Source: a virus
UHGV virus genome: UHGV-0241990
Reading direction: 5' to 3' (one strand)
Length of the DNA stretch: 13,531 nucleotides
Shown: in pieces, positions 1,944 through 12,948 of the stretch
Layout of the letters: the number at the start of each line of letters is the position of its first letter
How positions within the stretch are numbered: position 1 is the stretch's first letter
Notes under the pieces: generated by a model
Told to the model about the DNA's origin: nothing
Database searches by the model: none
What the model saw: the letters and a program-made list of their open reading frames with translations, nothing else
Translations under genes and position numbers: made by a program

Positions 1944-1961
1944 AAATCAACTTCTCGCAAA
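1944..1961 (+). repeat. conserved 18-nt element AAATCAACTTCTCGCAAA, copy 1
   Basis: Identical to 2463-2480; ends exactly 11 nt before the ATG at 1973. Confidence 0.7.
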
Positions 1962-1972
1962 AGGTGATAGTT

Positions 1973-2095
1973 ATGGGTATCAAGAACAGTGCCAGCGCAT
2001 GGCAAAAGGCCAGGTTTCATCACCCACACATTGTTAAGGCAATTGAGGTGGTTGGAGTTTTAGCCCTGATGTTAGCTCTGTGTGTGGAGGTGTGA
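1973..2095 (+). CDS. small hydrophobic peptide, 40 aa (MGIKNSASAWQKARFHHPHIVKAIEVVGVLALMLALCVEV)
   Basis: Not in ORF track (below its apparent length cutoff). ATG 1973 with AAGGTGA SD 5 nt upstream; stop TGA 2093-2095. Basic N-terminus and predicted C-terminal TM helix. Preceded by the conserved 18-nt element. Confidence 0.4.
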   Translation: MGIKNSASAWQKARFHHPHIVKAIEVVGVLALMLALCVEV

Positions 2096-2173
2096 GATGG
2101 GCAAAGGAGGCAAAGTATTTTTAATAGGTCTGGCAGTCTTAGATTTTGTATTAATCATCATTGAGCGGAGTTT

Positions 2174-2434
2174 ATGACGGGAACTAAAGATATTAAGAGA
2201 CTGAGGGAAGAGCTGATAGCTGAAATTAAAGCTAAGGCAAAGCAAATGGAGATAGCCGCACAAATGGATGTAGCGGAACAGATGTACAAGATGGTTGAGG
2301 AGGGAACGCCACGACAGGTCATCGCTAAAACCTTCGGTGTGGGGATCGCCACCGTGCACAGAAGGCTAAAAGCCTATGCCGACTACCACAATATCGAAAG
2401 AAAGGAGGATGGGAGATTTAAGAAGAATAAATAG
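2174..2434 (+). CDS. small HTH DNA-binding protein, 86 aa
   Basis: ORF from track; GGAG SD before ATG 2174. Helical N-terminus followed by an HTH-like segment TPRQVIAKTFGVGIATVHRRLK (resolvase / sigma region 4-type pattern). Confidence 0.75.
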   Translation: MTGTKDIKRLREELIAEIKAKAKQMEIAAQMDVAEQMYKMVEEGTPRQVIAKTFGVGIATVHRRLKAYADYHNIERKEDGRFKKNK

Positions 2435-2462
2435 TGTGAACAGTCCACCAGGTTATTAACTT

Positions 2463-2480
2463 AAATCAACTTCTCGCAAA
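2463..2480 (+). repeat. conserved 18-nt element AAATCAACTTCTCGCAAA, copy 2
   Basis: Identical to 1944-1961; ends exactly 11 nt before the ATG at 2492; followed by GGGG SD-like bases. Confidence 0.7.
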
Positions 2481-2491
2481 GGGGTACCACT

Positions 2492-3202
2492 ATGTTTAAG
2501 GGAATTATTGTTACACTATTAGCTTGCATTGTATTTGGTCCATGGGTGTTAGTAATTGCTTTGCCTCTATTACTAGTGATGAGTGTAGGGAAAGATATTA
2601 AAAAGCTGCATGCACAATATAAAGAGCACCCTGGAGCAGTCATAACAAGTCTGGTTATAGTCGCGGGGCTTATTGGCTGGGCCTACTTCTCTCTTCCCAC
2701 AGGAAATACAGCTGCAAATGTGGAAGAGGTGAACTCACAGCATGAAGAAGTGGTTAACGTCTCCGATCTTACATGGGAGGACAGGGTAAAAGCATATAAA
2801 TATATTTATGGTGTGCTAGATTGCGATCTCTCTAAAGATATAGGATGCACAGATAAATACCAGATTCACGCCTGGCTGTGGAATCATGCAGAAAAAGGTG
2901 CTTGCAACCAGATTAAAGTGGCGGTTAACAGTGGGGCACCTACTGGGAAAAATAAAGATGTTCTGACGGTATGGTGCAAGGATGTAAAAGGCAATGATCG
3001 TTGGCTACAGATGCGCCACATGGACGGTGTAAGCATAGAAACTACACGAACGGCTCGATGGTATAACGGTGAACTCGTTCACGAAGCATGGCAGAATAAC
3101 GCCTGGATCACTGAGGGAACACTCCTGAATGTTGATATGGAAGCATTGAAGATGCTTAATGAGATGTACGGTGAAGCCGTAGAAACCTCTCCTATGAAAT
3201 AA
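2492..3202 (+). CDS. membrane-anchored protein, 236 aa (two N-terminal TM helices plus soluble Cys-containing domain)
   Basis: ORF from track. Hydrophobic stretches IIVTLLACIVFGPWVLVIALPLLLV and ITSLVIVAGLIGWAYF, then a ~170-aa hydrophilic domain with several Cys. Followed immediately by a strong terminator. Confidence 0.85.
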   Translation: MFKGIIVTLLACIVFGPWVLVIALPLLLVMSVGKDIKKLHAQYKEHPGAVITSLVIVAGLIGWAYFSLPTGNTAANVEEVNSQHEEVVNVSDLTWEDRVKAYKYIYGVLDCDLSKDIGCTDKYQIHAWLWNHAEKGACNQIKVAVNSGAPTGKNKDVLTVWCKDVKGNDRWLQMRHMDGVSIETTRTARWYNGELVHEAWQNNAWITEGTLLNVDMEALKMLNEMYGEAVETSPMK

Positions 3203-3218
3203 CCACACCAACCCACCA

Positions 3219-3245
3219 GGGGGCCATCACGGCCCCTTTTTTATT
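3219..3245 (+). terminator. rho-independent terminator
   Basis: GGGGCC (3220-3225) / GGCCCC (3231-3236) stem, ATCAC loop, then TTTTTTATTT; 17 nt after the stop of the 236-aa gene. Confidence 0.85.
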
Positions 3246-3248
3246 TAT

Positions 3249-3303
3249 CCCCTATTTAACCCCTATTTAATGGGTATTTAATGCCTATTTATTGATTTAA
3301 TGG
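3249..3303. repeat. five tandem 11-bp units with TATTTAA core
   Basis: cccctatttaa (3249), cccctatttaa (3260), tgggtatttaa (3271), tgcctatttat (3282), tgatttaatgg (3293). Period is one helical turn. Confidence 0.6.
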
Positions 3304-3783
3304 TTTTGGGCATTGTTGACAGTGTAAGAGAGAGGATGTAACCCTTTTTTGCAATACTAATAAAATCAATAGCTTAGCTCAATTGGCCTTTTCTCTATTT
3401 TTGTCAAATTTAACATACCCTCAAAAACTGCAAAATCTGGCTGCAAGATTATCTGCAGCTGGATTTCTTACACCTCAATTTGTAGTATCACCCTGACTAG
3501 TTTGTGCATAAAATGAACAGTTTTTAACATTTCCTATTCACCTGGTAACCACACAAAAAGCTAAAAACGAGGCACAGATAATCTTAGAGGCCTGTTTTCT
3601 TGTTATCACTCTGGGAACGTCGTAGAAGTGATTTTGATGAAAGATGACCTACCCTATTACACCCCCATTTTTTGTTATCACAATTGCATCCTGTGCGGTG
3701 TATGGCTGTGTGCTGAAAGCGGTCTTGGGTGTGGGTGTCAGAAATATCCATTAGCGGTATTAATACCCGTCAGATGTTCGTCT

Positions 3784-3820
3784 GAGGTGCCAGGCAGGCG
3801 CTCCCCCACCTCCCTTTTTT
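3784..3820 (+). terminator. orphan terminator-like hairpin plus T-run in non-coding DNA
   Basis: GAGGTG (3784-3789) pairs CACCTC (3807-3812) with GC-rich inner pairing, followed by CC TTTTTT (3815-3820). No annotated gene upstream on this strand. Confidence 0.4.
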
Positions 3821-4368
3821 CTTCTAACAATTCTCAAATATCACACCACTGCCGACCACGTTGCTATTATGTTAATTCTTAAGCTTTGCTGTATGTTGTG
3901 CACATTATTTATTCAGGTGGCTGTACGTAAATTCTGTGCCCACTGATCATGATTTTTAAATCAGATTTTGTAGTGCGCTTTATTAGTGTAGATAAGATCT
4001 ATTATGTTAAATGCAATTTTCCCAACCCTTCAAATCAATGACTTACATGTAAGCATGCACTAACACCCCACACAGCACATTAGACGTATAGATGGCTATA
4101 TCCCACATTTTTGATTGTTTTGTAGTCATTCCCCTGATCATTTAACCAGTATAGTTTGTTCTCTGTAGACCACAAAACCGGAATTTACATCTGATTAACA
4201 TAATCTGTTAGCATGATCACCATTACCCACACAACAATAACCCCATGCAAGCCTCTTCAGGCAATTTATCGGCGTGTTGGTGTGAACAGTCTTTCATGTT
4301 CTTTATGTATTCATTGTCCTGTGTGAGGGAAGGATGGACTGCCCCAGGGGCCATAGTTATGACACCCG

Positions 4369-4404
4369 GTCAACATAACTGTTGATAAAATCAACGGGTG
4401 TTGA
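4369..4404. promoter_or_regulatory. pair of palindromic operator-like sites TCAACA-N4-TGTTGA and ATCAAC-N4-GTTGAT
   Basis: 4369-4384 TCAACATAACTGTTGA and 4389-4404 ATCAACGGGTGTTGAT share half-site TCAAC / GTTGA; centres 20 bp apart. CCCCAGGGG palindrome at 4341-4349 just upstream. Confidence 0.45.
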
Positions 4405-4525
4405 TCTGCATATTTCCCACACATGAGAGAAAATCAAAGCAAAGAGAGAGGAGAGAGGTTTGCTAGTCAAAATAGGTCAATTGACGGCTAATACAGAGTA
4501 AAAAATCAGATGCAATCACTCCCCC

Positions 4526-4795
4526 ACCTGTTGGGATTTCCTACAACCCCTTTCAGTCATACTCAGGCACCACACCCCGGTAAATATTACCGCACTAACC
4601 TGTAAAGAATTTTCACACCTGTGTGTTTATACAGTCATACTCTCCTGTTTTGCAGTCATTGCACCCATGATACACAGCCCCTAACCTGTCAAAATATTTT
4701 ACTACCCCACCAATAATACGGCCCATACCTGTAAAATATTTTTACTACTACCTGTCAAAATCTTTTACTACTACCTGTAAAAATATTTGACACTA
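4526..4795. repeat. iteron array: ACCTGT-containing ~23-bp repeats with near-palindromic core GT(C)AAAATATTTTAC
   Basis: Well-conserved copies starting near 4598, 4684, 4727, 4750, 4773 (spacings 86, 43, 23, 23 bp). Degenerate ACCTGT/CCTGT copies at 4526, 4617, 4644. Inverted repeat CGGTAAATATTACCG at 4578-4592. Confidence 0.65.
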
Positions 4796-5377: not shown

Positions 5378-5406
5378 TTGACAATTGGTTGACAATATGA
5401 TAAGAT
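5378..5406 (+). promoter_or_regulatory. sigma70-like promoter candidate P1 with duplicated TTGACAAT
   Basis: TTGACA 5378-5383, 17-bp spacer, TAAGAT 5401-5406 (4/6). A second TTGACAAT at 5389-5396, 11 bp downstream of the first. Confidence 0.4.
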
Positions 5407-5441
5407 TATAAATAGGGGGAGAAACAGATCCGGAGGTCAAT

Positions 5442-5591
5442 GTGGAAATTACTGATGCAATAGCGATCATCAACCTGGCTGTACTGTGGTGCGGTGTTGC
5501 CTACATAGCCGGAGTAACTGCAATCGACAATCTTGAAGAAAAAATGATAGATAAATACAAAAAGATTGTTGACAATTTGACGAATGTCTGA
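5442..5591 (+). CDS. small GTG-initiated ORF, 49 aa, predicted TM helix (VEITDAIAIINLAVLWCGVAYIAGVTAIDNLEEKMIDKYKKIVDNLTNV)
   Basis: GGAGG at 5432-5436, 5 nt before GTG 5442; stop TGA 5589-5591. Not in track (short, non-ATG start). Protein-like composition, unlike the antisense track ORF 5406..5606. Confidence 0.3.
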   Translation: MEITDAIAIINLAVLWCGVAYIAGVTAIDNLEEKMIDKYKKIVDNLTNV

Positions 5592-5597
5592 TAAAAT
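5569..5597 (+). promoter_or_regulatory. near-consensus sigma70 promoter P2 for the plus-strand operon
   Basis: TTGACA 5569-5574, exactly 17-bp spacer, TAAAAT 5592-5597; predicted start ~5604, giving a ~120-nt leader before ATG 5725. Confidence 0.6.
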
Positions 5598-5724
5598 ATA
5601 AAGCATAGGGTAATTCTCATCATAGTGAATTTCCTTTAGTAGACTGGCGGGGGCTTGTCTTAAGTTCCCGTTTCTTTTTAATCATATATCGCACAGGTTA
5701 GTGAGCTAACAGGAGGCTTATACT

Positions 5725-5940
5725 ATGGCTAAAACCGGACCGATCAGCCAGCTGGTAAACTGGACTACTGACGAAATCGTCGAGAACGTACTTAAGGGGA
5801 ACTTCCGCAAAACTTCCGTTTATGCATTCATTCGTAAACATAAAGGAGAATATCCACACATTGAAGAAGCAATTTTAAAACTAAATTGCATTCGCCTTGA
5901 GCGGGAACTGGCTAAATACACCAATAACATTAATAAATAA
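5725..5940 (+). CDS. hypothetical small protein, 71 aa
   Basis: ORF from track; AGGAGG SD 5711-5716, 8 nt before ATG 5725; first gene downstream of P2. Confidence 0.7.
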   Translation: MAKTGPISQLVNWTTDEIVENVLKGNFRKTSVYAFIRKHKGEYPHIEEAILKLNCIRLERELAKYTNNINK

Positions 5941-5953
5941 TTATGGGGGAATT

Positions 5954-6820
5954 ATGGCAAGTAATTACGGGGAAAATTTTACTCCCCTTTTTAAACGTTT
6001 CATCAAATACATTTTTAAAAATCCGATTGCAAAAACTACAACCAATAAAGAAAGATTTCACTTAAACTTGTTGGAAATGACAATTTACGGTGAGATGGCA
6101 AGTTTTAATGCTGCAGGTTGTGAAATATTTATCTCTGAACAGAGATTAGCAGACGATTATGATGTTTCAAGACCGACAGTTATTAACTCGATTAAATCTC
6201 TAGAAAATGCCGGGCTTATTTCAATAGTTAAAAGTAAAGGCAAATCTAATCATTACAAACTGCTAATTACCCCTGATCAGCTTGGCAAGATGTGTGATGA
6301 GCAGGGTATTAAAACCTCCGACAGTGTGGGATCTAGTAAAGAGGCCCCCGATAATCAACAGGAAGCCCCAAAACAACCCACACAGCAAGCTAAAAAGGCC
6401 GAGGTGGTGCAATTGCCTACCCAACCTAAGAACGAGCGCAGAGAGCGCTTTAGAGACGCTGGCAAACGTGAGAAAGATGAGCACGGTTATCCGATTCTGA
6501 CAAGTGATGAGATGAACGCCAAATACAAAGGGATTCAGGCAACATTTAAGGATCGGAAGAGCATTAAACTCTCTGAATTGCGAGATGCATTTTACGGGCC
6601 GGAGGTGATGGATAAAATTAAAGGCACCGTTGAGGGTAGAATCTGGAAAGAAGATGATTATTGGCATTTAACAGAACAGGCCCTTAAGGTGGCTCAACAT
6701 GTAGCTAAAAGAGGTAAAACAATTATCATCGATTATATTAGTCATGGCTATGATGCCCCGAAAGAAAGATTGTGGAACAACTGCAAGCTTGTAAAAGGCG
6801 AATTAACCATTACAAAATAA
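5954..6820 (+). CDS. winged-HTH DNA-binding protein, candidate replication initiator or iteron-binding regulator, 288 aa
   Basis: Track ORF 5897..6820; start moved to in-frame ATG 5954 (GGGGGA upstream, avoids 44-nt overlap with previous gene). HTH segment ISEQRLADDYDVSRPTVINSIKSLENAGLISIVK, a Q/P/K/E-rich linker, then a distinct C-terminal domain. Lies ~1.2 kb downstream of the iteron array. Confidence 0.8.
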   Translation: MASNYGENFTPLFKRFIKYIFKNPIAKTTTNKERFHLNLLEMTIYGEMASFNAAGCEIFISEQRLADDYDVSRPTVINSIKSLENAGLISIVKSKGKSNHYKLLITPDQLGKMCDEQGIKTSDSVGSSKEAPDNQQEAPKQPTQQAKKAEVVQLPTQPKNERRERFRDAGKREKDEHGYPILTSDEMNAKYKGIQATFKDRKSIKLSELRDAFYGPEVMDKIKGTVEGRIWKEDDYWHLTEQALKVAQHVAKRGKTIIIDYISHGYDAPKERLWNNCKLVKGELTITK

Positions 6821-8793: not shown

Positions 8794-10935
8794 ATGGCAA
8801 TGAAGGAAGTAGCCAGACTAACAAACGTTATTTACTGGGACTCTGATAAATCCTCCTGGCGAAAAGAAGTTAAACGGCTTGAGGATTATAAAAAATCCTG
8901 GAAGAAAGCTACCGACGATATAGCTAAAGCTGATTTTAAATCTAATCAGGCTGTGCTCAGAACACAAAGAACACGCGCTAAGGTGGAAGAGCAGATAGCC
9001 AGAGCTCAGAGGAAACAACAGGAAGCACAGAAGAAACAACGTGCTCAGGCTGTCAGCCGTCTGACCGGGGGCAACAATGCCGAACTTAACTCTATGCGCA
9101 AGTTCTACCAACAACAAGCCAGAGAAGCCGCCAGACAACAAAAACTGTTAGATCGTAGTGTTGGAGATGTTCAGCACAGAAAAGCACGTGTAGGGGCCAA
9201 CAGTGCACGAATCAGCAGCATGTTTGATGGATCCCTGGTTGCTCAGTTCCAAAGCAGAATCCAGAGAGTTAATGCTGATTATGCTAAAGGGGCTATTAAC
9301 CTGCAGACCTATAATCAGAAAATGGCCCGACTCAGAGCTGAAATGAAGATGGCCTCTAGAGATGCCACCACCTTTCAAAGCAAGCTAGATAAACTGGCAG
9401 CAGGTGCGAGCAAGGTGCATAACAATATCGGCAAGCTTAACAGTGCTTTAGGCAAGATAGCCATTGGCCTGACCGCTGCAGGATGGGGTATTCAGAGAGC
9501 TGTTAGTGGTGCTATGAGCGCTCAATCTGACCATAACTCAGCCTATTATGGTTTGCTTGCTCAGAACAAGGATGATAAAGCCAAGACTGACCAGCAGATG
9601 GCTTTTATCGAGAACACAGCCAACACCTACGGGATGGATCAGCGTGAGATGGAGGGTGGCTATATGCGTTTTGCTGCCGCTACTCCCACCATGAAGGAAT
9701 CTGATAAGCAGGCTCTTTTTGAGGCTATGGCGATTAAAGGCCGCTCAGTGGGTGCTACTGGCGAGCAACAGAACAGGGCGCTTGTTGCGGTCCAACAAAT
9801 GGCTTCAAAAGGAAGAGTAGCTGCGGAAGAGCTGCGTGGCCAGCTGTCAGAAGCCTTTGCAGGCTCACAACAGGATTTTCAACAGGCCGCTATTGATGCC
9901 GGAATCATCAAGAGTGCCCAGGAATTCGATAAAGCCATGGCAGATGGCAAAATCACCCTGGACAAGCTTCTTCCCTCTCTAGTGAAAATCTGGGGTGCTG
10001 CAAAAGAAACTGACGCTTTTGCTAAATCTATGCAACAGCCTGAAGTGGCACTGCAGAGAATGAGCAACCAGTTTTTTAAACTAAAGCAATCCTTTATGGG
10101 TGTTGTGGATCCTGCGGATGGCGTCATTACCCTGTCAGAATCCCTTATTTATATCTTTGAAGATTTATCCTCAATTTTCAGTAGCTCAGGTGAAGATGCC
10201 AAATCTCTCGGAGTTATGTTAGGCGAGGCAATGCATGAAATTTATTTTTGGGTCAACTGGGCTTGGTGGTGGACTAAGAAGATCGCCAAAGGCATTGGTG
10301 AGACGTTAGGCTGGACCGCACAGGATGCAGGCGAGAAGATTGGCCAGGTTGTGACCGCCCTGTTAGGCCTGAAGGTTGCAACAAGCATTGCTGGCATGGT
10401 TGGCGGCCTTATTTCCATGCTGTGGAAACTTAAAGCGGCGCTTAGTGCTTTAGTCGGTGTTGGTGATATCAGCACTGGAGGCACAGCAGGCAAAGGCAGA
10501 CCAGGTAGAGGCGGCTTTATCGGGAAAGCAGGCAGACTTGGAGGAAGATTTGCAGGTCCGGCAGGGATTGTTTTGACAGGATTTGACATTGCAAATAGCT
10601 TAGATTCCTACTGGCAGAATCCTGATAATCAGCGGCAGGAAGGAGCTAAACATCCTGAATGGTTAACCAGTATGGTTAATAGTGCTTCTAGCTTCCTTGG
10701 CCTTGATTATCGTCTGGACGCAGGACGCTACATTACCAGACCAACACCAACGGGTGGTATTGCTATTCAGAATGGAGGCTATCAGCCGACTCAAATCAGT
10801 GTAGTTCCGCAGGGTGAGATCTCCGGCAAGTGGGAGATAACCATTGATGAGGGGGGAATTGCCAGGGTGATCCAGAAGGAAGTCAGCGATCAGCTGGATT
10901 GGAAAGCCACACAGGAAGCTAATCAGCTTTTCTAA
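8794..10935 (+). CDS. tape-measure-like protein, 713 aa
   Basis: ORF from track. Long charged Q/K/R/E-rich helical N-terminus; central segment GEQQNRALVAVQQMASKGRVAAEELRGQLSEAFAG resembling the conserved tape-measure domain (recalled). Hydrophobic segments (VVTALLGLKVATSIAGMVGGLISMLW) and a Gly-rich stretch (GGTAGKGRPGRGGFIGKAGRLGGRFAG). Confidence 0.8.
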   Translation: MAMKEVARLTNVIYWDSDKSSWRKEVKRLEDYKKSWKKATDDIAKADFKSNQAVLRTQRTRAKVEEQIARAQRKQQEAQKKQRAQAVSRLTGGNNAELNSMRKFYQQQAREAARQQKLLDRSVGDVQHRKARVGANSARISSMFDGSLVAQFQSRIQRVNADYAKGAINLQTYNQKMARLRAEMKMASRDATTFQSKLDKLAAGASKVHNNIGKLNSALGKIAIGLTAAGWGIQRAVSGAMSAQSDHNSAYYGLLAQNKDDKAKTDQQMAFIENTANTYGMDQREMEGGYMRFAAATPTMKESDKQALFEAMAIKGRSVGATGEQQNRALVAVQQMASKGRVAAEELRGQLSEAFAGSQQDFQQAAIDAGIIKSAQEFDKAMADGKITLDKLLPSLVKIWGAAKETDAFAKSMQQPEVALQRMSNQFFKLKQSFMGVVDPADGVITLSESLIYIFEDLSSIFSSSGEDAKSLGVMLGEAMHEIYFWVNWAWWWTKKIAKGIGETLGWTAQDAGEKIGQVVTALLGLKVATSIAGMVGGLISMLWKLKAALSALVGVGDISTGGTAGKGRPGRGGFIGKAGRLGGRFAGPAGIVLTGFDIANSLDSYWQNPDNQRQEGAKHPEWLTSMVNSASSFLGLDYRLDAGRYITRPTPTGGIAIQNGGYQPTQISVVPQGEISGKWEITIDEGGIARVIQKEVSDQLDWKATQEANQLF

Positions 10936-11612: not shown

Positions 11613-11639
11613 AGGGGCTATCAGGCCCCTTTCTTGTCT
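11613..11639 (+). terminator. rho-independent terminator
   Basis: AGGGGC (11613-11618) / GCCCCT (11625-11630) stem, 6-nt loop, then TTCTTGTCT. Overlaps the stop codon of the convergent minus-strand gene. Confidence 0.6.
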
Positions 11640-12079
11640 ATGTCTACCCAGTATTTGATTGCACCGATCAAATCATCATAGTGGCGCATTGCATCATTGA
11701 AGCCTTTATAGCTTGCCCATTGTGGGGAAACCTTGTTATTGCTGAATTGCCCACTAATCAGGATAGTCTCCAAAATGTCGGCGTATCGCTTGCCAATTCG
11801 CTTTCTGACGGCCTCAGAGCTCCCACCCTTTACGATTGCATTAATCAGGGCTTTTGTGTGTCTCAGGCTCTCATAGAGCATTGCAGCGTGGGCAGACTCC
11901 ATAAATGAGCGCTTAGGCAAATCACCCCACCCCTCAGAGTGGATAGCCGCCAGTGTGGCGTAATTCAGGCCGCTATAGTGTTTCCCGTCATCCCAGCCAA
12001 CCGCTACACCTTCCATCTGTGAGAGCTCTTTATGCAGCTTATCCATCATGCGCTTGTCTATGGTGCACCGGACTTTCAT
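11621..12079 (-). CDS. putative virion morphogenesis protein, 152 aa
   Basis: ORF from track; start ATG overlaps the stop of the upstream gene (ATGA at 12076-12079). Segment VGWDDGKHYSGLNYATLAAIHSEGWGDLPKRSF is reminiscent of small head-tail or tail-completion proteins (weak, recalled). Confidence 0.75.
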   Translation of the reverse strand: MKVRCTIDKRMMDKLHKELSQMEGVAVGWDDGKHYSGLNYATLAAIHSEGWGDLPKRSFMESAHAAMLYESLRHTKALINAIVKGGSSEAVRKRIGKRYADILETILISGQFSNNKVSPQWASYKGFNDAMRHYDDLIGAIKYWVDIDKKGA

Positions 12080-12843
12080 TTTGTAGCATCCTTGGCAAAT
12101 TTGGCTTGCCTTTGCTGATCATAAATGTCTTTTGTGCTCATAGCCCCATCATTTTCATCGAGCAAAGTTTGTAAATTTTTAGGCTTAGCCGATGGGGTGT
12201 TGGTTGAGTTCCCGACGTTGCTATTCTTCTCAGCACTGTTAACAGCACCCTTTTGCTGTGTTTTATTCACCTTCTTACTGTTAGTGAAAACTCCGGCATT
12301 TTCGACCATCTTCACCTTGAAGGTGCGGAATTCTTCAAAAGTGCAATCAATAGTGATGCAGTCGCCAGAGGAAGAGCTACGCTTAACTTCACATTTCGTC
12401 ATGATGAAGTTCTCAAGAAGTCCGGCATCTTCACTAACCAGGCTAACCAGCTGGCGCTTGTCTCTCATTTCCATAAGTGCCTGAACAGCGGCAGCAGGGC
12501 GCATAGATTCACGGGGATTATCTGGATCAGTGTTCCGGTCGATGTAGTTCTCTTTCCGGATGATATGAGGGGAAGAGGTAACAATACCCGTAAAGCTGAC
12601 AGATTTATCTTTAATGACGGCATGGTCTGACATGGTGGTGCCATCCTCGACCGCATAGCTCGATTTCTCAACAGGGAACGAATAGCTGACATCAGAGATA
12701 GAGTCAAAGAAGATAGCCACATTATCGGTATAGTTGAAGCCATCCATTATATTTTTGTTTTGTGAATATCCCCCACACATAACAGTGAATGCAGGAGATC
12801 TCGACTCAGCTTGTTTTGCAGCTGTTAGAGCATCATTAGCCAT
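12076..12843 (-). CDS. hypothetical protein, likely structural, 255 aa (258 aa if started at 12852)
   Basis: Track ORF 12076..12852. GAGG SD is 1 nt from ATG 12852 but 10 nt from ATG 12843, so 12843 preferred. Beta-rich N-terminal part, low-complexity polar C-terminus. Confidence 0.75.
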   Translation of the reverse strand: MANDALTAAKQAESRSPAFTVMCGGYSQNKNIMDGFNYTDNVAIFFDSISDVSYSFPVEKSSYAVEDGTTMSDHAVIKDKSVSFTGIVTSSPHIIRKENYIDRNTDPDNPRESMRPAAAVQALMEMRDKRQLVSLVSEDAGLLENFIMTKCEVKRSSSSGDCITIDCTFEEFRTFKVKMVENAGVFTNSKKVNKTQQKGAVNSAEKNSNVGNSTNTPSAKPKNLQTLLDENDGAMSTKDIYDQQRQAKFAKDATK

Positions 12844-12948
12844 ATTGAACATGCCTCAAAAATGAATCTTTTCGTTGCCCTGCTTAAAATCTGCAGAAAA
12901 TACAGGGCAGTTATTCGTTAGAATCGCTTATAGCTCTTCCCGAGAGCG

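Follow-up and report, generated by a model that had tools for sequence, protein, structure and literature searches.

What does the short plus-strand operon that begins at position 1973 of the virus genome UHGV-0241990 contribute to the element that carries it? The stretch of DNA analyzed (13,531 bases, referred to here as the window) is a complete circle, in which the minus-strand gene for the major capsid protein (MCP) runs continuously across the window junction to give a 348-amino-acid protein. Near-identical circular, non-mobilizable E. coli plasmids of 13.2–13.7 kb were present in 7 of 5,426 complete genomes and in five PLSDB records. Because it carries divergent capsid and tail genes of the kind found in rV5-like phages, the 13.5-kb plasmid looks like a plasmid-borne phage satellite. 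Within it, the last gene of the operon is exchanged between otherwise closely related plasmids, and our best guess, at a probability of about 0.35–0.4, is that the exchanged (cargo) proteins act at the cell envelope against phage infection.

An exchangeable gene at the end of a conserved operon

The features of the operon (ORF, open reading frame; HTH, helix-turn-helix; TM, transmembrane) are listed by position.

1944–1964, plus strand: first copy of the 21-nucleotide repeat AAATCAACTTCTCGCAAAAGG, 29 nucleotides before the ORF40 ATG, containing a Shine-Dalgarno sequence
1973–2095, plus strand: ORF40, a 40-amino-acid tail-anchored membrane peptide with a basic N terminus and a predicted TM segment at about residues 18–40; backbone gene
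2097–2177, plus strand: ORF26, a possible 26-amino-acid TM peptide; doubtful gene
2174–2434, plus strand: HTH86, 86 amino acids, an N-terminal helix followed by a Hin/resolvase-type HTH_7 domain; backbone gene
2463–2483, plus strand: second copy of AAATCAACTTCTCGCAAAAGG, 29 nucleotides before the cargo ATG; left edge of the slot
2492–3202, plus strand: cargo gene of type A, 236 amino acids
3218–3244, plus strand: intrinsic terminator, made of a stem-loop (3218–3238; 8-bp G+C stem) and a U6 tract; marks the slot on the right and is common to all cargo types

A preliminary description of the window had proposed a self-contained accessory operon of three genes, opposite in orientation to the head genes and closed by a strong terminator. 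The three ORFs of 40, 86, and 236 amino acids and the terminator (dG -15.2 kcal/mol, z = -2.8) were recovered at those positions, and codon-position bias and the ratio of nonsynonymous to synonymous substitution (dN/dS) show that these are real genes. The operon does point away from the head genes, a minus-strand gene for a 111-amino-acid protein (841–1176) and the MCP gene. The count of three overlooked the hydrophobic ORF26, which begins 1 nucleotide past the ORF40 stop codon and overlaps the HTH86 start as ATGA, so that it is coupled to both neighbors; it is intact in 12 of 19 relatives and cut to 22 or 8 amino acids in the other seven, and for this reason is itself doubtful as a gene. The term "self-contained" goes further than the evidence, since no convincing sigma-70 promoter was found upstream of ORF40 (the best match, at 1630–1659, reached 9/12), and the gap that separates HTH86 from the cargo gene has no promoter either.

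Homology between the plasmids ends at the cargo ATG (2494–2496) and returns at the common terminator or immediately past it (3211 or 3245). Three types of cargo were found in 20 loci, all of them between the same 21-mer and the same terminator.

Type A: 236 amino acids, two TM helices and a cysteine-containing domain; carried by the window and by two relatives, L004 and L021
Type B: 172–173 amino acids, a polytopic (multi-TM) protein with a glycine-rich basic tail
Type C: 195 amino acids, a signal peptide and a cysteine-containing domain; the commonest type

The cargo is exchanged among plasmids that are otherwise approximately 91–97% identical, and its type does not follow the backbone: the flanks of the window are closest to a plasmid with type B (L003), and its genes for the tape measure protein (TMP) and the Dit-like tail-tube initiator are closest to one with type C (L002). 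ORF40 and HTH86 are present in every family member at no less than 87% identity, whichever cargo follows. These comparisons show that recombination between plasmids swaps the slot with precise boundaries, the start codon of the cargo gene and its stop codon, and that only the last gene is accessory, with ORF40 and HTH86 forming an invariant backbone; the term "accessory operon" thus holds for its final gene alone. All three cargo types are under purifying selection (dN/dS 0.12–0.27), with a value of 0.23 for the 236-amino-acid type A gene against the L004 allele. These two type A alleles differ at synonymous sites by a proportion (pS) of 0.41, compared with 0.13 for the adjacent HTH gene, and they are therefore older than the flanks they now have. 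Such start-to-stop exchange behind a common initiation region is a tidy natural case of modular cargo swapping.

The 21-nucleotide repeat occurs at both positions in every relative examined and was not found elsewhere in the plasmid; the region has no unusual structure as RNA. The 21-mer was also considered as a helper-phage motif, which was rejected because 50 kb of an rV5-like genome did not contain it and its IMG/VR matches were at chance level.

Of the two backbone genes, ORF40 is intact in 19 of 19 related plasmids, and its variable sites fall 1/2/9 across the three codon positions (9 of 12 at the third). Homologues of the same length, at 41–49% identity, were found in unrelated non-mobilizable E. 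coli plasmids of 9.0–9.65 kb; relatives of ORF40 were absent from GTDB species representatives and IMG/VR.

7892–8011 of L130 (CP057337.1): ORF40 homologue, 9-kb E. coli plasmid
8275–8394 of L131 (CP057168.1): ORF40 homologue, 9-kb E. coli plasmid

In both 9-kb plasmids the homologue sits downstream of a serine recombinase, and the genes that follow it differ between the two. ORF40 is thus a conserved small membrane peptide that, judged from these arrangements, heads variable operons. Apart from ORF40, the 13.5-kb and 9-kb families have no gene or DNA similarity in common, and similarity between HTH86 and the recombinase of the 9-kb plasmids was undetectable.

HTH86 matched Pfam HTH_7 at 27.5 bits (cutoff 23.8) and the DNA-binding domain of Hin (1hcr) with an E value of 3.5e-4. 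Its match to the PHROG DNA invertase family covers only the C-terminal part of the invertases. Unlike serine recombinases, HTH86, with its 86 amino acids, lacks the N-terminal catalytic domain with the active-site serine, and it therefore cannot recombine DNA. Its homologues are restricted to this plasmid family, and the variable sites of the gene are distributed 9/7/37 over the codon positions. The preliminary description suggested that the HTH protein could be the regulator of the cargo, but HTH86 is invariant whatever the cargo type, which argues against a cargo-specific role and makes it more plausibly a DNA-binding regulator at the level of the plasmid. Candidate binding sites are close at hand.

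1739–1879, no strand assigned: operator-like cluster upstream of the operon, with four copies of TGATAGA including an inverted repeat

The 13.5 kb contain five copies of TGATAGA, four of them within 140 nucleotides upstream of the operon, and these sites are largely kept in relatives. The inverted repeat consists of ATCTATCA (1772–1779) and TGATAGAT (1796–1803) separated by 16 nucleotides, and the inverted repeats near the HTH86 gene end in TGATAG/CTATCA. The fifth copy (5545) adjoins a promoter at 5569 whose sequence is partly common to the head promoter. From this proximity and the resemblance to a Hin-like half-site, HTH86 is predicted to bind these inverted TGATAGA repeats, which lie in the divergent intergenic region; such binding would control this arm and possibly also transcription from the head promoter.

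Cargo proteins predicted to reach the envelope

The type A protein has hydrophobic segments at residues ~5–30 (TM1) and ~49–67 (TM2), with a lysine-rich, positively charged loop between them, followed by a hydrophilic C-terminal domain (~82–236) that contains Cys111, Cys120, Cys138, and Cys162, in agreement with the layout first described. Cys138 and Cys162 are invariant in the type A family, and Cys111 and Cys120 occur in most members. One relative (P0003) carries the domain, at 65% identity, behind a cleavable signal peptide instead of the two TM helices, and another (P0008) carries it behind a single anchor. Types A and C have a core of approximately 60 residues in common, including the cysteine pair (hhalign probability 88%, E = 3e-6), and type C, although distantly related, has a signal peptide. 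The positive-inside loop, the signal peptide of P0003 and the single anchor of P0008, the conserved cysteine pairs and the type C signal peptide make a good case, in silico, that type A is inserted in the inner membrane by its two helices and places a disulfide-bonded alpha+beta domain in the periplasm, as the earlier suggestion of an envelope-facing domain would have it.

Relatives of type A are few. A word-indexed search of 5.8 billion proteins returned five clusters, and an exhaustive hidden Markov model search of 1.84 billion representatives added two further real relatives; nearly all are on E. coli contigs of approximately 13–14 kb, and none has a named function. Two distant relatives, P0006 and P0008, are on short contigs, one with its own sigma-70 promoter and the other in an array of small phage-like genes with a relationship to the mEp044 group, which is suggestive only. 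None of the cargo proteins A, B, and C or the small peptides matched Pfam, PHROGs, PADLOC, or NCBIfam. For the 236-amino-acid protein, tblastn against phages (50,697 records) and plasmids and a sequence search of the PDB also gave no match. Homology to a structural or lysis protein, which would have spoken against the first interpretation of this gene, was looked for in the profile (Pfam and PHROGs), tblastn, and fold searches, and none was found.

A first AlphaFold2 model of the full-length type A protein was unusable, with a predicted local distance difference test score (pLDDT) of 51.5. The type A model retained has a pLDDT of 75.9 and a predicted template modeling score of 0.74 and is of the alpha+beta class. 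A Foldseek search against the PDB and BFVD gave no significant match. The predicted fold weakly resembles PepSY/cystatin-like domains (YpmB, YpeB, the N-terminal domain of DsbC/DsbG, and cystatins), with which it would share a helix packed on a 3–4-stranded antiparallel sheet of approximately 60 residues as well as export and, often, anchoring to the membrane.

Two smaller observations concern the other cargo types. A "GPW" first TM helix common to types A and B was considered and set aside as weak (E = 0.05). By inspection of the sequence, the type C protein (for example, 8281–8868 of L002 and 339–926 of L005) ends in YDNGFWFF, an aromatic C terminus that resembles the signal found at the end of outer-membrane proteins as well as the DegS-activating motif.

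Possible phage exclusion and competing explanations

The architecture of the cargo proteins and their variability at a fixed position hint at a role in exclusion. In the manner of T4 Spackle or Imm, the cargo would bind or inhibit a periplasm-exposed part of the injection apparatus of an incoming phage, for example its tail lysozyme or tape measure, and would thereby exclude helper-type or competing phages or satellites; by annotation, the baseplate of rV5-like phages includes both a cell-wall hydrolase and a tail lysozyme.

Two groups of known systems invite comparison. Phage satellites and prophages carry variable antiviral hotspots, as described for P4 and P2 (PMC9122126). Like these hotspots and the morons of temperate phages, the slot holds alternative, unrelated genes between fixed, conserved flanks of near-identical elements, is closed by its own terminator, and has its cargo swapped independently of the backbone. 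Unlike them, it holds one small gene that is swapped from start codon to stop codon, behind a 21-nucleotide initiation region that also precedes ORF40. It differs further in that all cargoes are predicted envelope proteins that do not match known defense systems and in that the element is an autonomous plasmid rather than an integrated island. Its terminator is clear, and a dedicated promoter was not found. The second group consists of small inner-membrane or periplasmic proteins encoded by phage-related elements: T4 Spackle, which acts in the periplasm to inhibit gp5, the tail lysozyme of a superinfecting phage (PMC7677548); T5 Llp, which blocks the receptor (PMC9586334); and T4 Imm, phi80/N15 Cor, HK97 gp15, and P22 SieA. 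Type A resembles these in size class, predicted location, and genetic setting, but has no sequence or fold similarity to them and is predicted to be alpha+beta and anchored by two TM helices. The locus is a variable accessory slot that holds candidate exclusion genes, and its protein families have no known relatives.

Several observations weigh against an exclusion role. No cargo has a sequence or fold match to a known exclusion or defense protein. The genes that follow the ORF40 homologues in the 9-kb plasmids look cytoplasmic, so the arm is not always envelope directed. No promoter was identified, and the operon may be active in carrier cells or only once infection occurs. Co-variation of cargo type with the TMP or Dit variant was not seen, and a specific lock-and-key relationship with the element's own injection proteins is thus not supported. 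In addition, no phage records holding the element were found, and its status as a satellite and the nature of its helper are argued from gene content alone.

A more elaborate version of the exclusion reading, which we consider unlikely as a whole, would join these strands. On this view, an undescribed plasmid satellite of virulent rV5-like phages would use the slot as an exchangeable locus of entry immunity, in which three new periplasmic or inner-membrane families, two with a common new disulfide-bonded PepSY-like core and one polytopic, select which phages or rival satellites may inject their DNA into the carrier; variants of the satellite's own TMP and tube initiator would escape, and the 21-nucleotide region would co-regulate ORF40 and the cargo.

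If a block to entry proves correct, these would be new exclusion proteins of very small size that act at the envelope. They would help to explain resistance to Vequintavirinae, a group used in collections for phage therapy, and it would follow that autonomous satellite-like plasmids carry exchangeable defense slots as P4-like islands do.

Among the alternatives, the one that survives best, although we regard it as rather improbable, is that the operon manipulates the helper. The membrane peptide or peptides and the periplasmic cargo would tune the timing or inhibition of helper lysis or protect the cell from lysis from without; the PLE protein LidI reportedly collapses lysis inhibition by ICP1, as Hays and Seed are said to have described in 2020. 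Small TM peptides do adjoin a gene for a predicted periplasmic domain here, the plasmid resembles a satellite of virulent rV5-like myoviruses, and YpeB is an example of how a PepSY-like fold can control lytic enzymes. Against this, none of the proteins is similar to holins, antiholins, spanins, or endolysins, ORF26 is often truncated, and one would not expect three unrelated proteins to stand in for one another in a core function of the life cycle.

We give only a small chance to a second alternative: that the cargoes are orphan immunity proteins against toxins acting in the periplasm or at the membrane, for example colicin M-type or pore-forming bacteriocins, effectors of type VI secretion systems, or tailocins, with types A and C neutralizing periplasmic toxins and type B pore formers. 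In its favor, the locus has alternative alleles, and anchored or secreted disulfide-bonded cystatin-like domains and small polytopic proteins resemble bacteriocin immunity proteins, the comparison being drawn with the general look of that group. The plasmid, however, carries no toxin gene, there was no match to immunity families in Pfam or NCBIfam, and distant relatives occur in phage-like arrays of small genes.

A role in plasmid maintenance, with ORF40, with or without ORF26, as a post-segregational killing toxin, the HTH protein as its regulator, and the cargo as an unrelated passenger, seems to us a similarly slim prospect. In its favor, the ORF40 peptide is kept in two small-plasmid families that are unrelated to each other, non-mobilizable, and without partition genes, but no antisense promoter or RNA was found opposite ORF40, Rfam gave no antitoxin RNA, the peptide does not match Hok, Ldr, TisB, or similar families, and ORF40 heads a multi-gene operon and has its initiation region in common with the cargo. 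Finally, it is highly improbable that these are chance or decaying ORFs without function: the truncation of ORF26 in 7 of 19 relatives and one integrated copy of the element with a frameshifted cargo gene point that way, but ORF40, HTH86, and each of the three cargo types are under purifying selection and nearly all independent plasmids have the genes intact, which contradicts it for everything except ORF26.

The plasmid that carries the slot

The plasmid itself deserves no less attention than the operon and is possibly the more important of the two, given that it encodes a capsid protein, a tape measure, and a tube initiator of its own and that over 1 kb of its non-coding DNA is conserved. 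For one relative, the exact HTH protein was found in 228 blocks of an assembly collection, nearly all of them with contigs of 10–20 kb; public contigs that match the plasmid number in the hundreds. The MCP matches the PHROG major head protein and is 24% identical to the rV5-like MCP; identities to the rV5-like (Vequintavirinae) counterparts are 26% for the TMP, 46% for the Dit-like initiator, and 42% for a tail-completion-like protein. No terminase or portal gene was detected among the plasmid genes (ORF list, Pfam, and PHROGs), and nothing was found in the literature on this plasmid family or on satellites of rV5.

5897–6820: Rep-like winged-helix protein; the plasmid also carries iterons

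Iteron-like 22-nucleotide repeats, four copies of ACCTGTCAAAATATTTTACTAC plus longer copies, occupy 4583–4794 and probably mark the origin for the Rep-like protein. Upstream of them, the approximately 1.3 kb from 3245 to 4541 has no ORF longer than 84 amino acids, yet its 91–96% identity among plasmids equals the conservation of coding regions. It contains no tRNA and had no Rfam match even at E ≤ 1; it could be a packaging site, an accessory region of the origin, or a long RNA. At the start of this region, directly after the operon terminator, four copies of (C/G)(C/G)TATTTA are repeated at an 11-bp phase (3251–3291) in an array that varies between plasmids, and a further copy at 5409–5416 adjoins a promoter.

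The divergent head genes have a 12/12 sigma-70 promoter (1685 to 1657), from which a minus-strand untranslated leader of approximately 470 nucleotides (1180–1650), with G+C-rich hairpins such as that around 1300–1335, leads to the genes for the 111-amino-acid protein and the MCP. Strong promoters at 1654–1699, 5378–5406, and 5555–5600 have the extended sequence GTTGACAATTTG...CTGATAnAATATA in common, which suggests one common regulator; the first, on the minus strand, serves the head genes, and the other two face replication and regulatory genes on the plus strand.

Three further observations were made on relatives of the plasmid. A 39,610-bp record (L133, NZ_CP043822.1) is a head-to-tail trimer of a 13.2-kb plasmid in which some copies are frameshifted. 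The record reflects either a genuine multimer or concatemer, conceivable because the plasmid lacks a resolvase, or an artifact of long-read assembly. A 94.6-kb contig (L129, JAQRGU010000003.1) holds a decayed copy of the element with the cargo and TMP genes split, co-integrated beside insertion sequence elements and an IncFII repA. Finally, when the window at 5900–6820, 8794–10935, and 11621–12852 is compared with L001–L020, the mosaicism between plasmids extends to Rep, to the C-terminal third of the TMP, and to half of the Dit/tail-completion module; in most relatives the aligned share is 3–69% for Rep and about 64% for the TMP.

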